Origin: an uncultured Clostridium sp.
Lineage (GTDB): Bacteria; Bacillota_I; Bacilli_A; RF39; UBA660
NCBI GenBank assembly: GCA_964475905.1
Contig: CAYYXX010000001.1
Span: forward strand, 2,989 to 66,988
Direction of reading: 5' to 3'
DNA length: 64,000 nucleotides
How positions within the stretch are numbered: the first letter of the stretch is position 1; each line of letters opens with the position of its first letter. The position numbers were made by a program, and so were the translations under genes. Below are positions 9,769 to 38,491 of the stretch, piece after piece. The notes under the pieces were generated by a model, which worked only from the letters and a program-made list of their open reading frames with translations, was not told the DNA's origin and searched no databases.

Positions 9769-12312
9769 CTAATCCTTAATCTTATTTAAAATAATATTAA
9801 GCATATCTCTTTCTTTATTTAAAGCTTCTCTTTCCCTATTAACAATTTCACTAGGAGCCCTATTAACATAATTATCATTACTAAGAAGCTTCTCTCTTCT
9901 TTCAATAGAAGACTCTAAATTTTTCTTATCCTTAAGTAATTTTTCTCTTTCCACATGAAGATTATTACTATTATCATAAATAATAACAATAGCCATACCA
10001 GCATATTCAACTTTAGTACCATCATTACTAATATCCATAATCCTATCTTCAAGTTTCAACATATTAACAATAATATTTCTAGATATCTCATCATCAATAT
10101 CAATATATACAGAATAATCCCCAATATTACCAAGTTCAGCTTTTTTATTTCTAAACATAGTAATAAACTCAAGTACATTATCAATATTAGTATCAAATAT
10201 CTCATCTTTATTATATACAGGATAATCACTAATCATAATAGAAGACTCTCTACTAATAGGAATCATGCTATATATCTCTTCAGTAACATAAGGCATAAAA
10301 GGATGAAGCATTTTCAAAATATCCACAAGAACTCTAATAAGTACACTCTTAGTAGTAGTATCATCATAAAACTTTGAAAGCTCAATATACTTATCACAAA
10401 AATCACTCCAAATAAAGTCATATAAAGTATTACCAACAATATGAAAATCATACTTATCCATACTCTTAGTAACATTCTTAATAGTTAAATTAAGCTTAGT
10501 CAAAATCCATTTATCCTCTTCCTTAAGATTATCAAAAGAATAATCACTATCCCCAAATCCCTCTAATTTCATCAAAACAAATCTAGAAGCATTCCAAATC
10601 TTATTAATAAAATTCCAAGTAGACTTAACCTTATCCTCATCATATCTAAGATCCATACCGGGAGCAGTATTAGTAGTTAAGAAAAACCTAAGAGAATCAG
10701 CACCATACTTATCAATAACATCCATAGGATCAATACCATTACCAAGACTCTTACTCATCTTCCTACCCTGCTTATCCCTAATAAGACCATGAATTAAACA
10801 ATCCTTAAAAGGCCTCTCATTCAAAAACTCAAGTCCTTGAAAAGTCATTCTATTAACCCAAAAAGGAATAATATCATAACCAGTAACCAAAACATCATTA
10901 GGATAATATCTCTTAAGCATTTCAGTATCAAGAGGCCAACCTAAAGTACTAAAAGGCCATAAAGCAGAAGAAAACCAAGTATCTAAAACATCCTCATCTT
11001 GTATCCAACCATCACCAGTAGGTTCTTCCATACCAACATAAACCTCTTCCCCTCTATACCAAGCAGGAATTCTATGTCCCCACCATAACTGCCTAGAAAT
11101 ACACCAATCATAAGTAATTTCCATCCAATGATTCATTGTCTTCTCATATCTAGCAGGAACAAAATTAACCTTAGTATCCTTATTCTTCTGATTATCAAGA
11201 ACCCTATCAGCAAGAGGTCTCATTTTAACAAACCATTGTTTAGACAAATAAGGCTCAACCATAACATCACTTCTTTCAGAAAAACCAACATTATGATTAA
11301 TAGGTTCAACCTTAATAAGAAGCCCCATAGCATCAAGATCCTTAACCACCTCATCACGACAAGTAAACCTATCCATACCATTATACTTAAAAGCATTCTC
11401 ATTCATTGTACCATCAGGATTCATAACAATAATTCTCTCCAAATTATGCCTATTACCAACCTCAAAATCATTAGGATCATGAGCAGGAGTAATCTTAACA
11501 ACACCAGTACCAAAATCCATATCAGCATGATTATCCGCTAGTACAGGAATAAGCTTATTAACAATAGGAAGAATAACATTTTTACCAATATATTTCTTAT
11601 ATCTATCATCAAGAGGATTAACCACAACCGCCGTATCTCCAAATAAAGTCTCAGGTCTAGTAGTAGCAATCTCCAAATAATCATCTTCACCCTCAATCAT
11701 ATATTTAATATGATAAAAAGCTCCCTCTACATCCTTATAAATAACCTCTTCATTACTAAGAGCAGTCATAGCAGCAGGATCCCAGTTAATAATCCTTTCC
11801 CCCCTATAAATAAGTCCCTTATTATATAAATCAACAAAAACTTTTCGAACAGCATGAGAAAGACCCTCATCCAAAGTAAACCTTTCCTTATCATAATCTA
11901 AAGAAAGACCAAGTTTAGCCCATTGATTGTGGATATTATGAGCATATTCTTCTTTCCAAGACCAAGCAACCTTAAGCCACTCATCACGCCCCATTTCTCT
12001 AGGATTAATCCCCTCACTCTTAAGTTTCTTATCAACCTTAGCTTGCGTAGCAATACCAGCATGATCCATCCCGGGAAGCCATAAAACATCAAAACCTTGC
12101 ATTCTTTTATATCTAATAATAATATCCTGAATAGAAGTATCCCAAGCATGCCCTAAATGCAGTCTACCAGTAACATTAGGAGGAGGAATAACTATAGTAA
12201 AAGGCTCCTTACTTAAATCACCTGATTTAAAATACCCCTTTTCTTTCCAATTATCATACTTATCTTTCTCAACCATTAAATGGTCATATTTTTTATCAAG
12301 CACTATAAACAC
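9769..12312 (-). CDS. valS: valine--tRNA ligase
   Basis: 847 aa with HLGH and KMSKS class-I motifs, the editing domain and a C-terminal coiled coil. Confidence 0.95.
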
Positions 12313-19407: not shown

Positions 19408-20073
19408 CTATTTTTTCTTCCAAAAACAAAGTAAAGAAATAATAAATAAACAAATACCAATAATAAAAATATAAGAGTTATATTGATATAAAAAAGAACT
19501 AACTAAATTAACAAAGATATGAACTAAACTAATCTTAATCACATCTCTAGTCTTAATAAAAATATAACCATTAATAATTCCAATAAAAAAAGCAATAACA
19601 AGTGATAAAAAATTAGAATGGGCTATAGCGAAAATAAAACTAGATAAAAAAATAATAACCCACTTATTAGAAATAAACTTCTCAAGCTTTATAATAAATA
19701 AATACCTAAACAAAATCTCTTCAAAAATAGGACCAACAATACTAGAAGCTACAACAATAAGAAGAATAGAAATATCATAATCCTGATAAGAATAAATACC
19801 ATATTTATAAAGAAGCATATTATAAATAATAGATATAGATAATCCCAGTAAAATATAAGGAAAATAATTATTTTTATCATTAAAAGAAATATCAATTCTC
19901 TTCATATTAAAAATAATAAATAAAATATCAAATACCATAATCAAAATAGTACCAATATAATAACTCCTACTAACACTAAAAACAATAATAGAAAGAATAA
20001 GAATAAAATATTGAATAAAAAAAACAATTATTATTTCTTTTAAAGATAAAATAAAATTCCATAAATACTTCAT
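19408..20073 (-). CDS. CPBP-family (CAAX) intramembrane metalloprotease
   Basis: Multi-pass membrane protein with EEILFR and FxxxH motifs. Confidence 0.65.
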   Translation of the reverse strand: MKYLWNFILSLKEIIIVFFIQYFILILSIIVFSVSRSYYIGTILIMVFDILFIIFNMKRIDISFNDKNNYFPYILLGLSISIIYNMLLYKYGIYSYQDYDISILLIVVASSIVGPIFEEILFRYLFIIKLEKFISNKWVIIFLSSFIFAIAHSNFLSLVIAFFIGIINGYIFIKTRDVIKISLVHIFVNLVSSFLYQYNSYIFIIGICLFIISLLCFWKKK

Positions 20074-33381: not shown

Positions 33382-33412
33382 TGTGATAAAATTCACATTT
33401 TTTATTTTTTTT
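33380..33412 (+). terminator. rho-independent terminator after rpmE
   Basis: aatgtga-taaaat-tcacatt followed by a long T-run. Confidence 0.6.
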
Positions 33413-33467
33413 AAATATATTATAGCTTTTTAATAATAATTCTGATAAAATAAATGTAGTGATATAA

Positions 33468-35485: not shown

Positions 35486-36220
35486 ATGCTGAAATTTGTA
35501 ATTTGTGAAGATAACAAAGAAGATCTAGCCAAAATAGTACAAACAGTAAATAAATCAATGATGAAATATAGCGTTGAATATAGAATAGCCAAATTTGAGA
35601 AATATGATGAAAAATTCGAAGAGATAATAAAGGAACAATTTGATACAAAAATATATTTATTAGATATTGAACTACCGGGAGTTGAAGGATTAGAAATAGC
35701 TTCAGAAATAAGAGAACAAGATGACAAAAGCTACATAATATTTATAACTAGTCATCCCGAATGTAAAAATGATATATTCTACTCAAGATTAGAAGCAATA
35801 GACTTTATTTCAAAAGATCATAGATATGAAAAAAGAGTCCAAGAAACCATAGAGTACATAATGGATAGATTTACAAGAAATAAGATATTAACATTTACTT
35901 ATGATTATACAATGTACAAAGTTCCCTATAAAGATATAACTTTTATTGAAAAAGATCCAATATTAGGAAGATGTATAATTCATTTCACAAGTGATAAACC
36001 AAAATATATAAAGAATACAATAACAAATCTAGAAGAAGAACTAGCACCACTATTTTTCAAAACACACAAATCATGTGTAGTAAATCTAGAAAATATCAGC
36101 AAGGTAGATTATGCCGAGTCCACTATTTATTTCAAAAATGGCGATTCAACATCATTACTAAGCCCTGCAAACAAGAAGGAGTTGAAGAATCATGTTAGAA
36201 ATTATGAGAACATTCTTTAA
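35486..36220 (+). CDS. agrA: LytTR-family response regulator (AgrA-like)
   Basis: Receiver domain (DIELPGVEG) plus a C-terminal LytTR DNA-binding domain. Confidence 0.8.
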   Translation: MLKFVICEDNKEDLAKIVQTVNKSMMKYSVEYRIAKFEKYDEKFEEIIKEQFDTKIYLLDIELPGVEGLEIASEIREQDDKSYIIFITSHPECKNDIFYSRLEAIDFISKDHRYEKRVQETIEYIMDRFTRNKILTFTYDYTMYKVPYKDITFIEKDPILGRCIIHFTSDKPKYIKNTITNLEEELAPLFFKTHKSCVVNLENISKVDYAESTIYFKNGDSTSLLSPANKKELKNHVRNYENIL

Positions 36221-37493
36221 TTGTTCAATATTAGTGATGTCTGTTTATATTTTTGGAATAATAATATTTAATAATGGAAAACTAAAAATATCAATAAAAG
36301 ATATACTAGCAATTCTTCTATGTACCGCCTTACATAGTACAGCATATCTTTTATTAGAAGGTACTGAGAAAACAATACTATCAATGTTATCTTTCTCACT
36401 ACTAATAAAAATATCATTTGATATAGATTTTATAAAATCATTGTTTTCTTCAATACTATACTCAATATTTACTATCATTCCAGATCTAGTAGTACTAGCA
36501 TTTGTTACTAAAGTATTAAATATGAGTAAAGACTATTGCTATTCCATATTTGCTGGAAGTATGATAGGTAATATAGTAATTAGTATAATAATGATATTAA
36601 TAATATATATTTTAAGAAAGCCATTAAAAAAACTATTTAGTTATAAAATATCTAAAAATATTGAAATAGTATTAGTATCACTATTAACATTAGTAACTAT
36701 AGCAATATTTTTCTATAAATTAATAAATAATTATAAATTTACAAATGATGTACTAGCATATTTATTAGTAATAATAACTCTAGTAATTATATTATCCTAT
36801 CTATTCAGACAAAATATAGAAAATCAAACAATGTTTAAGAAATACGACGATCTATTAACAATCATGAGAAATTATGAAAGTGATATAGAAGAACAAAGGA
36901 CAACAACTCATGAAACAAGAAATGAATTATTAACAATAAGATGTCGTGTAGAAAAATTTGGAGATGAAAAACTATGCGAATACATAGATAGTATTATGGG
37001 AGATAAGAAGAATGTTGATAGTGCAAAATATTCCAAATTCAAATATTTACCTACAAATGGCTTAAAAGGATTTCTATACTATAAATTTATTGAAGCCGAA
37101 GAAAAAGGAATTAGTGTAAAACTAAATATATCAAAACAAATAGAAAAGAGTTTCTTAATAGAATTAAATACAAAAGATTTCAAAGATTTAACAAGAATAT
37201 TAGGAGTATATCTAGATAATGCAATTGAAGCATCCTCATCTTCCCAAAATAAACAATTAGGTATAGAAATATATAAAATTAAATCAAACATAGAAATAAT
37301 AATATCAAATACATATGATAACATTATAGATGAAGACAAAATTGGTAATGAAAGATTTAGTACTAAAGGAGAAAATAGAGGTCATGGACTATTATTAGTA
37401 AGTAGAATATTAAAGAGTAATCCAAAATTCGAATCAGAAACAAAGAAAACAGATTCCCTATATATTCAAACATTAAAAATAAAAGACAAATAA
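36192..37493 (+). CDS. agrC: AgrC-like sensor histidine kinase (HPK10 / GHKL HATPase_c_5)
   Basis: Six N-terminal TM helices; C-terminal ...TRNEL...GHGLLLVSRIL typical of AgrC/ComD kinases. Confidence 0.75.
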   Translation: MLEIMRTFFNCSILVMSVYIFGIIIFNNGKLKISIKDILAILLCTALHSTAYLLLEGTEKTILSMLSFSLLIKISFDIDFIKSLFSSILYSIFTIIPDLVVLAFVTKVLNMSKDYCYSIFAGSMIGNIVISIIMILIIYILRKPLKKLFSYKISKNIEIVLVSLLTLVTIAIFFYKLINNYKFTNDVLAYLLVIITLVIILSYLFRQNIENQTMFKKYDDLLTIMRNYESDIEEQRTTTHETRNELLTIRCRVEKFGDEKLCEYIDSIMGDKKNVDSAKYSKFKYLPTNGLKGFLYYKFIEAEEKGISVKLNISKQIEKSFLIELNTKDFKDLTRILGVYLDNAIEASSSSQNKQLGIEIYKIKSNIEIIISNTYDNIIDEDKIGNERFSTKGENRGHGLLLVSRILKSNPKFESETKKTDSLYIQTLKIKDK

Positions 37494-37531
37494 AAAAAGA
37501 ATCAACAAACAGTATATAAGATTCTTTTTTT
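37492..37531. terminator. bidirectional terminator between the convergent agrC-like and agrD genes
   Basis: A-run, aagaatc...gattctt hairpin, then T-run; a second palindrome aaactattaatagttt follows. Confidence 0.5.
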
Positions 37532-37559
37532 ATTAGATAAACTATTAATAGTTTAATTA

Positions 37560-37673
37560 CTATTTTAACAAACTTTTAGGCATTTTAGGCTCGTCAATAA
37601 ACCAAAGAGTACATGCTTTAGTACCAGCACCAGTAGAAAGTGAACCAATTAGATTTAATAATCTTGCTAACAT
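37560..37673 (-). CDS. agrD: AgrD-like autoinducing-peptide precursor, 37 aa (MLARLLNLIGSLSTGAGTKACTLWFIDEPKMPKSLLK)
   Basis: RBS AGGAGG overlaps the agrB stop. Amphipathic leader, Cys in a C-x4 context, then IDEPKMPKSL matching the conserved AgrD C-terminal tail. Confidence 0.7.
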   Translation of the reverse strand: MLARLLNLIGSLSTGAGTKACTLWFIDEPKMPKSLLK

Positions 37674-37684
37674 ACAACTACCTC

Positions 37685-38314
37685 CTAATCTATATTTATA
37701 CCATACGGCTTATAAGTAACAATATAGTTCTTATAATTATCATATGGTAGTTGAAACATCCTATATACCAGAGGATGAATCATCAAACTTGCATCCAGTA
37801 GTCCAAAACATAAGTATGAACTAACAACAGTATTCTTAAATAAAATAATAAATATTAAATATATAAGTCCAATAATAATAGTTATTATTTTATATTTTTT
37901 TCTCTTATATTTATTAACAAGTGGTCTTTTATAAGTATCCGCTGGAGCATATAACATAAGAATTACAAAAGAAATACCACTAATCAAATACTTAACAATA
38001 GTAGCCATACCAATATATTTACATATAAAGGCCGTACCAATAAACAAAACTCCAGATATAAAGTAGCAATGCCAACTCTTTTTAGCGTGCATACCAAAAG
38101 CTGTAGTTCTAATAATGTTATAAGATAGTAAAATAAATAATACCTCTTTAGCAATATTAAGAATGAAAGCTACTCCAAAAATAACTATTGTCTTAGAAAA
38201 AGTAATATACAAAGATTCCAATCCATAACTAATTTCTTCAAGCTTCTCTTCACTATATTCAGGATAACTTTTCTTAATTGCACTAATAGATTTACTTAAA
38301 AATTTTTCTCTCAT
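37685..38314 (-). CDS. agrB: AgrB-family membrane endopeptidase (AIP processing)
   Basis: HAKKSWHCYFISGVLFI...YAPADTYKRPL...KYKRKKYK matches AgrB conserved blocks. Confidence 0.8.
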   Translation of the reverse strand: MREKFLSKSISAIKKSYPEYSEEKLEEISYGLESLYITFSKTIVIFGVAFILNIAKEVLFILLSYNIIRTTAFGMHAKKSWHCYFISGVLFIGTAFICKYIGMATIVKYLISGISFVILMLYAPADTYKRPLVNKYKRKKYKIITIIIGLIYLIFIILFKNTVVSSYLCFGLLDASLMIHPLVYRMFQLPYDNYKNYIVTYKPYGINID

Positions 38315-38405
38315 ATCTTAAAATCACAATAAAATTATAACATTACAAAACTAAAAAAGAGTTAAATAGCGGACAAAATAAAAAAAAGTAATAGAATAGT
38401 AGCAA

Positions 38406-38433
38406 AGTTAACTACAGAGTAACACCTAGTTAA
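38406..38433. promoter_or_regulatory. candidate LytTR-type direct repeat (AGTTAA ... 22 bp start-to-start ... AGTTAA) in the agrB upstream region
   Basis: aaAGTTAActacagagtaacacctAGTTAAaa; the spacing resembles AgrA-type paired 9-bp repeats. Confidence 0.3.
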
Positions 38434-38491
38434 AAAAATCACTTGTAATACCCCACAAAAAATAGTATAATAAAATAGAGGTGAAGAAAAA

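Follow-up and report, generated by a model that had tools for sequence, protein, structure and literature searches.

The window analyzed here is a stretch of 64,000 nucleotides from contig CAYYXX010000001.1, derived from an uncultured low-GC gut bacterium of the RF39 type related to Clostridium sp. CAG:302. It appears to encode quorum sensing by an autoinducing peptide (AIP) of the agr type, a reading to which we assign a probability of about 0.7. The locus pairs genes for an AgrB protease/cyclase and a short AgrD peptide precursor with genes for a LytTR regulator and an AgrC-like kinase, an assignment supported by family hidden Markov models (HMMs), by catalytic residues and by conservation over dozens of species. 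An agr-type locus built of two convergent gene pairs had been proposed in a first-pass annotation of the same DNA, and that part of it is borne out. The predicted AIP ring, however, is probably one residue larger than was proposed there. The genes, and the signals that lie within them, are as follows:

35486 to 36220, plus strand: AgrA-like response regulator with Asp60 (PF00072 and PF04397; structural relatives ComE and AgrA).
36192 to 37493, plus strand: AgrC-like sensor histidine kinase with His240 (PF14501; AgrC structures 6e52 and 4bxi; transmembrane segments).
37560 to 37673, minus strand: agrD, encoding the 37-amino acid (aa) autoinducing-peptide precursor MLARLLNLIGSLSTGAGTKACTLWFIDEPKMPKSLLK (TIGR04223; orthologous open reading frames; public gene calls).
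37596 to 37613, minus strand: codons of the predicted AIP core, Cys21-Thr-Leu-Trp-Phe-Ile26 (read from the sequence; entropy profile).
37681 to 37686, minus strand: agrD ribosome binding site (RBS) AGGAGG (read from the sequence; GGAGG-type RBS in related loci).
37685 to 38314, minus strand: agrB (PF04647; His76/Cys83; several hydrophobic segments).

A check of the open reading frames (ORFs) placed all four genes where they had been drawn before, including the start and end of agrB, and all are intact, with their catalytic and phospho-acceptor residues retained. The regulator gene (244 aa) overlaps the kinase gene (433 aa) by 29 nucleotides on the plus strand, and the pair converges on agrB (209 aa) and agrD (37 codons) of the minus strand, i.e., the four genes do not form one co-directional agrBDCA operon. 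The AGGAGG of agrD lies 7 nucleotides 5' of its ATG and overlaps the TAG stop codon of agrB (37685-37687), as had been noted at first sight of the sequence.

Residues 10 to 175 of the 209 in AgrB match PF04647 with E = 7.7e-36 and 123.6 bits (cut-off 23), which confirms the homology proposed earlier, and its hydropathy profile contains several hydrophobic segments. His76 and Cys83, within the motif GMHAKKSWHC, are near-invariant among 47 sequences. They align with H77 and C84 of Staphylococcus aureus AgrB, the catalytic His and Cys, which are likewise seven positions apart. A structure search found no solved AgrB on which the catalytic residues could be aligned.

The 37-aa product of the small ORF exceeds the cut-off of the NCBIfam model TIGR04223, "AgrD family cyclic lactone autoinducer peptide" (27.2 versus 19 bits, E = 3e-6). 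Scanning one genome per species gave 46 related loci, and in 45 of them a homologous small ORF with a strong RBS is found 3' of agrB, far beyond what chance would provide; in nearly all of the loci agrD has an RBS of the GGAGG type. The gene had been called unannotated, and it is indeed missing from the ORF track that accompanied the first-pass annotation, but only because of an ORF-length threshold. In the public record the identical 37-aa product, along with other exact window proteins, is already present among NCBI, ENA and Logan gene calls, and relatives appear at NCBI under the name [quoted passage not shown]. Samples SRR14160765 and ERZ27271042 are among those in which this species occurs. 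Four public variants (P0122, P0215, P0238 and P0161) are close to the window peptide. Two of them keep its core, one with M31T in the follower (DEPKTPK) and one with leader changes, and the other two differ solely at ring position +5 (CTLWFM and CTLWFV).

The peptide was compared with 45 AgrD orthologues, one per species, in an alignment, and with a second set of 122 database clusters; to search the protein database for AgrD relatives, an alignment with a 40-aa relative as its first sequence served as the query. Conservation is moderate in the leader, which runs into the Cys through G-(T/S)-(K/Q)-(A/G), with small residues at position -3 (T/S) and at position -1 (A/G) each found in 42 of the 45 orthologues. 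All 45 have Cys21 and Glu28, and conservation is at least 90% at D27, P29 and P32, which together with the TIGR04223 match substantiates the AgrD architecture of leader, Cys core and acidic, proline-containing follower described previously. By contrast with these flanks, the five positions after Cys21 are hypervariable (entropy 1.7-3.2 bits), and the profile then drops to 0.26 bits at D27, 0 at E28 and 0.15 at P29, inside a near-invariant follower DEPKMPKSL. The spacing C-x5-(D/E)EP holds in 44 of 45 species and in 117 of the 122 database clusters. Every one of the 45 species has a core of its own, and 108 distinct cores are present among the 122 clusters. Cores of neighboring species include CNAWFI and CTLWLI. 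The core of the window peptide does not occur in the table of known AIPs, and a literature search for the string CTLWF returned nothing relevant; the core is thus unlike known AIPs, as had been remarked, but this is to be expected in a family whose species, nearly without exception, have private cores.

The proteins of the convergent pair have the domain composition of a peptide-sensing two-component system, in keeping with the AgrC-like kinase of six transmembrane (TM) segments and the LytTR regulator recognized earlier. The regulator combines a Response_reg domain (PF00072) with a LytTR domain (PF04397) at residues ~131-244; in the PDB it is closest to ComE and next to the AgrA LytTR domain, and its Asp60 aligns with ComE residue 58, the phospho-acceptor position. 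In the kinase, 6-7 TM segments within residues 1-205 (by hydropathy) are followed by an HPK10-type kinase module with the HATPase_c_5/GHKL domain PF14501. Among solved structures, significant matches are limited to the kinase modules of S. aureus AgrC (6e52 and 4bxi), whose phospho-histidine lines up with His240. The best NCBIfam models are AgrA for the regulator (82 bits against an equivalog cut-off of 400) and AgrC for the kinase (71.8 bits against 500). These scores are far below the cut-offs; the two proteins are members of the families and not orthologues of staphylococcal AgrC and AgrA. The sensor half of the kinase diverges faster than the kinase half across relatives (36-54% versus 57-73% identity). 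This was considered as evidence for co-evolution of peptide and receptor and rejected, as an unrelated neighboring kinase shows the same pattern.

All 46 related loci come from metagenome-assembled genomes (MAGs) of uncultured gut "Bacilli" or "Tenericutes" and from CAG genomes, including Clostridium sp. CAG:302; the best AgrB identity among them is 78%, and the window itself has a GC content of ~27%. The family CAG-302 has been placed in the order RF39 (PMC7676259). Approximately 40 of the 46 loci have agrB followed by agrD, with the kinase and regulator genes converging on them. The 22 closest also share their flanks: rpmE-ltaS lies beyond the regulator and kinase genes, and agrB is bordered by an EIIB-like gene and a second kinase. 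In loci with differing outer flanks (L023-L045) the four genes stay adjacent. Taken together, the common layout and the shared flanks of the closest loci indicate an old module that is vertically inherited in the lineage. Some relatives carry additional copies of the sensing components, namely two AgrC-like kinase matches beside agrBD (L022, L038 and L043) or an extra LytTR regulator upstream of agrB (L034 and L040), and these may represent receptor duplications. A search of the literature for agr in RF39 found no paper.

Control of the locus probably involves a pair of short boxes upstream of agrB. The signals recognized around the genes are as follows:

38407 to 38423, minus strand: box pair GTTACT-N5-GTTAAC, a candidate LytTR site (positional conservation across species).
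38429 to 38434, minus strand: weaker third box TTTAAC, a candidate for a 22-bp spacing.
38334 to 38342, minus strand: extended -10 TGTTATAAT of the agrB promoter, with no recognizable -35 (conserved in relatives).
37489 to 37534, both strands: A/U-rich 15-bp hairpin, a candidate bidirectional intrinsic terminator (folding).

The box pair is the sole match to GTTANY-N5-GTTAAY in the 64-kb window, and allowing 0 or 2 mismatches brought up no further pairs in the window beyond chance. In the window and 21 relatives it stands at a fixed distance, 72-74 nucleotides, upstream of the agrB -10, although the sequence between is unconserved, and several distant relatives have similar pairs ~107-113 nucleotides 5' of their agrB ATG. 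The extended -10 itself, TGnTATA(A/C)T, is conserved 23-37 nucleotides upstream of the agrB ATG in relatives. Both the position of the boxes and their GTTAA, the core of the S. aureus AgrA half-site ACAGTTAAG, point to a probable, as yet candidate, site for the regulator. By analogy with P3, it was considered that the boxes might serve the divergent EIIB-like gene. That candidate was rejected, and the boxes assigned to agrB, because their distance to the agrB -10 is fixed and that to the divergent promoter varies between species from ~10 to >100 nucleotides.

On the other side of the locus, the 50-nucleotide gap between ltaS and the regulator gene contains no promoter-like or terminator-like signal, so the regulator and kinase are probably expressed by read-through from ltaS. 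Six relatives (L012, L013, L015, L016, L017 and L019) have a second pair, GTTAAC-N5-GTTAAC, between rpmE and ltaS, at ~10950-10985, which suggests that the ltaS-regulator-kinase operon of these six is under the same box control; this second pair is not present in the equivalent gap of the window (33382-33467). In four distant relatives (L023, L024, L028 and L029) the regulator gene has its own promoter, in which an inverted repeat TGTAAC-N7-GTTACA that may be an operator covers the -35 region and is followed by TGTTATAAT.

A bidirectional terminator had been proposed between the convergent pairs, and here the results are divided. A consensus terminator scan of the 66-nucleotide gap between the convergent stop codons gave 0 sites. 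Folding, on the other hand, yields, for either strand, the 15-bp hairpin at 37489-37534 between runs of A and U (dG -16.1 and -16.5 kcal/mol, z = -5.1 and -4.5), as well as a second small hairpin at 37538-37555. The stem is nearly all A-U, which is why the consensus scan missed it, and for a genome of 27% GC the larger hairpin is a plausible bidirectional terminator. Rfam detected no RNAIII-like or other RNA family in the window.

Provided that the system works at all, its AIP ring is probably CTLWFI, of six residues, rather than CTLWF. The boundary between variable and conserved positions falls after Ile26 (Cys+5) and not after Phe25 (Cys+4): position Cys+5 has an entropy of 2.58 bits and eight residue types, including T, A and F, and is as variable as the other ring positions, versus the 0.26 bits of the Asp that follows. 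The Clostridium acetobutylicum AgrD has the same geometry (...GKCVLVTLYEPKMPEELL, i.e., GKCVLVTL followed by YEPKMPEELL; PMC10301443 supplement), and its AIP was predicted, and then confirmed by high-resolution mass spectrometry, to be a six-membered macrocycle without N-terminal extension (PMC8251862). With this precedent and the boundary in the 45 orthologues, CTLWFI becomes likelier than the five-membered ring, with Ile26 in the follower, that had been suggested. Cleavage by AgrB of the same system after Phe25, to give a five-residue thiolactone CTLWF and a follower (I)DEPKMPK, is the less probable course. Five-membered rings are by far the commonest type of AIP, the C. perfringens AIP CLWFT holds a similar L-W-F run, and the near-identical cores show conservative change at +5 (CTLWF-I, -V, -M). 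Against it, besides the variability of Cys+5, stand the two anchored cases, in which the ring ends right before x-E-P: CVLVTL before YEP in C. acetobutylicum, and the pentapeptide AIP CFMFV of Listeria, whose precursor has YEP directly after the ring and one residue fewer before the follower. If the ring ends directly before the conserved x-E-P, the ring in the window has six residues.

It must also be asked whether the peptide is sensed by the adjacent kinase, and whether it signals at all. Several observations weigh against the reading of an agr signaling system. Beyond NCBIfam, where the AgrD check was positive, Pfam, including its staphylococcal-type AgrD model, gave no match to the 37-aa peptide even at E<=1. 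The kinase and regulator remain far below the AgrC and AgrA equivalog cut-offs (500 and 400 bits), and the faster divergence of the sensor half, being shared with an unrelated kinase, is non-specific. AgrA sites of S. aureus are 9-bp repeats 21-22 bp apart. The boxes of the window are 11 bp apart, versus this classical LytTR spacing of 21-22 bp; they lie ~73 nucleotides upstream of the -10, further than expected for direct activation; and the third box, which would provide a 22-bp spacing, is weakly conserved, only modestly above background. In another reading, the AgrBD peptide would serve interference or antimicrobial functions, or be sensed elsewhere, and the adjacent kinase and regulator would answer another cue, perhaps related to ltaS and the envelope. 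Such a division would agree with the separate, convergent transcription units, with the apparent co-transcription of regulator and kinase with ltaS, with their low AgrC and AgrA scores, and with the existence in Clostridia of agrBD pairs without adjacent agrCA. It is nonetheless improbable, as the four genes remain adjacent in ~40 species despite different outer flanks (L023-L045), the best structural relatives of the kinase are AgrC and the regulator is of the LytTR type, a pairing typical of peptide sensing, and the conserved boxes upstream of agrB hold the GTTAA of the AgrA half-site core. Still more improbable, to the point of being scarcely credible, is the idea of a locus that no longer signals and that persists, silent or decaying, in a reduced genome. 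Genomes in the lineage are small, and in one relative, a chromosome-level MAG of 1.46 Mb (L002, CP091726.1), tblastn matches for the kinase, the regulator, LtaS and the second kinase are fragmented. But neighboring housekeeping genes of this MAG are fragmented too, making assembly frameshifts more likely than gene decay; the four window ORFs are intact, with catalytic and phospho-acceptor residues; and leader and follower are under clear purifying selection in 45 species while the core diversifies.

The agr reading may be set out as a process, each step of which is a proposal. The agrB and agrD genes would be co-transcribed and translationally coupled, and the amphipathic leader, with polar residues R4, N7, S11 and T14 on one helical face, would bring AgrD to the membrane. 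AgrB, through His76 and Cys83, would cut off the follower DEPKMPKSLLK after Ile26 and join the Ile26 carboxyl to the Cys21 thiol, producing the six-residue thiolactone CTLWFI. Removal of the leader could occur directly before the Cys, for which the small residues at -3 and -1 would be suited. By analogy with Clostridia, and speculatively, a product left in this way without a tail could become a head-to-tail cyclic peptide through an S-to-N acyl shift; a tail-less AIP is hinted at here, indirectly, by those small residues, and is likewise speculative. The 6-7 TM kinase would then sense the peptide and pass phosphate from His240 to Asp60 of the LytTR regulator, itself probably expressed by read-through from ltaS, and the regulator would probably act at the GTTAAC boxes upstream of agrB to establish positive feedback. 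As to the target of the system, sporulation may reasonably be guessed at, since it is under agr control in clostridia and the window contains spoIIR.

In the RF39-type gut lineage as a whole, agr may be a fixed, vertically inherited module, in which each species has a private six-residue signal, possibly tail-less or head-to-tail cyclized, and the receptor genes lie in the ltaS operon, convergent on agrBD; this wider generalization is tentative, with the odds against it. Systems of the agr type are best known from pathogens; the present one is a complete, well-conserved example in small-genome RF39-type gut bacteria. We know of no cultured representatives of these bacteria. More than 100 different six-residue cores can be predicted from the family, with masses clear enough to be sought in gut metabolomes. 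For the window peptide the calculated [M+H]+ is 764.380 as cyclic CTLWFI and 651.296 as cyclic CTLWF; applied to Rc-AIP1, this calculation gives the published 873.3389. The family is also a natural test set for the co-diversification of ring sequence and receptor specificity between species. Should the system prove to control sporulation or envelope synthesis, synthetic peptides might serve as species-specific handles with which to manipulate, or even to cultivate, organisms that have never been grown.

Several other features of the window touch on these subjects. Divergent from agrB, the segment 38492-40122 (plus strand) encodes a 104-aa membrane-anchored PTS_EIIB-like protein (PF00367, 31.6 bits), in which the active-site Cys appears by inspection to be replaced, and then an orphan multi-TM HisKA kinase. 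Across relatives the EIIB-like gene (82-95% identity) and the HisKA kinase are more conserved than the agr genes. Between ~20000 and 31000 the GC skew goes from roughly -0.4 to roughly +0.1, and genes switch orientation, near 22-24 kb, with parA/parB on the minus strand and yidC, jag, mnmE, mnmG, rsmG, a second ParB-like gene and spoIIR on the plus strand. The region, ~13 kb from the agr locus, probably holds the replication origin, and its spoIIR indicates that sporulation genes occur in this small-genome lineage. At 19408-20073 (minus strand) the window encodes an Rce1-like/CPBP membrane protease (PF02517). MroQ of S. aureus, which is needed for AgrD leader removal, belongs to the same superfamily, and on that account the protease is a candidate leader peptidase here, though the family is a common one.

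Among known systems the closest is that of C. acetobutylicum (AIP [CVLVTL], "R6T0"). Its four components are the same, agrBD and agrCA being separate units there too, and its CVLVTL followed by YEPKMPEELL has the identical Cys+5 geometry before x-EPKMP as CTLWFI followed by DEPKMPKSLL; both hosts carry sporulation genes. To judge from its sequence, which passes the key test for this type, the locus would work in the same manner. In contrast to C. acetobutylicum, the units in the window are convergent, with the kinase pair behind ltaS, the precursor has 37 rather than 54 aa and a different leader, and the host is an uncultured RF39-type bacterium. The clostridial six-ring group has a LanM-like (CA_C0082-type) gene right after the agr cluster, whereas the genes flanking the window locus (ltaS, rpmE, the EIIB-like gene, the HisKA kinase and an Smr-domain gene) include no LanM-like domain. 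Another six-residue, aromatic-rich core with Cys first is that of Rc-AIP1 (CWFWSY) from Ruminiclostridium cellulolyticum, a tail-less peptide that undergoes thiolactone-to-lactam rearrangement to a homodetic cyclopeptide and controls sporulation. Though sequences and host differ, Rc-AIP1 would be the likeliest chemical precedent if the leader in the window is cut directly before the Cys.

The likeness to agrBDCA of S. aureus is one of components: an AgrB endopeptidase with His and Cys, an AgrD with amphipathic leader, Cys core and acidic, Pro-containing follower, a multi-TM HPK10 kinase whose His aligns, a REC plus LytTR regulator, and a hypervariable core with conserved flanks. The S. aureus genes form a single co-directional operon with a divergent RNAIII, whereas in the window there is no Rfam RNA and the divergent gene encodes the EIIB-like protein. 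The S. aureus AIP has a five-membered ring with a tail of 2-4 residues, compared with the predicted six-residue ring, and the AgrA repeats of S. aureus are 21-22 bp apart rather than phased at 11 bp. AgrBD of C. perfringens ([CLWFT]) has the L-W-F run in common with the core described here, but its ring is five-membered and it has no adjacent agrCA. The agr2 locus of C. difficile (agrACDB) is also of non-canonical order, but is reported as one reversed-order transcript and not as convergent units. The first-pass annotation emphasized a gene order different from agrBDCA; the convergent order does differ, but loci with agrBD apart from agrCA, or with reversed order, were already documented. Reviews list separate agrBD and agrCA operons, missing receptors, six-membered macrocycles and rearranging tail-less peptides. 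Separate operons, a six-membered ring and species-specific cores all have documented precedent, and nothing here is conceptually new for agr biology. What is specific to this locus is its host lineage, its convergent wiring behind ltaS, and the presence of one core per species.

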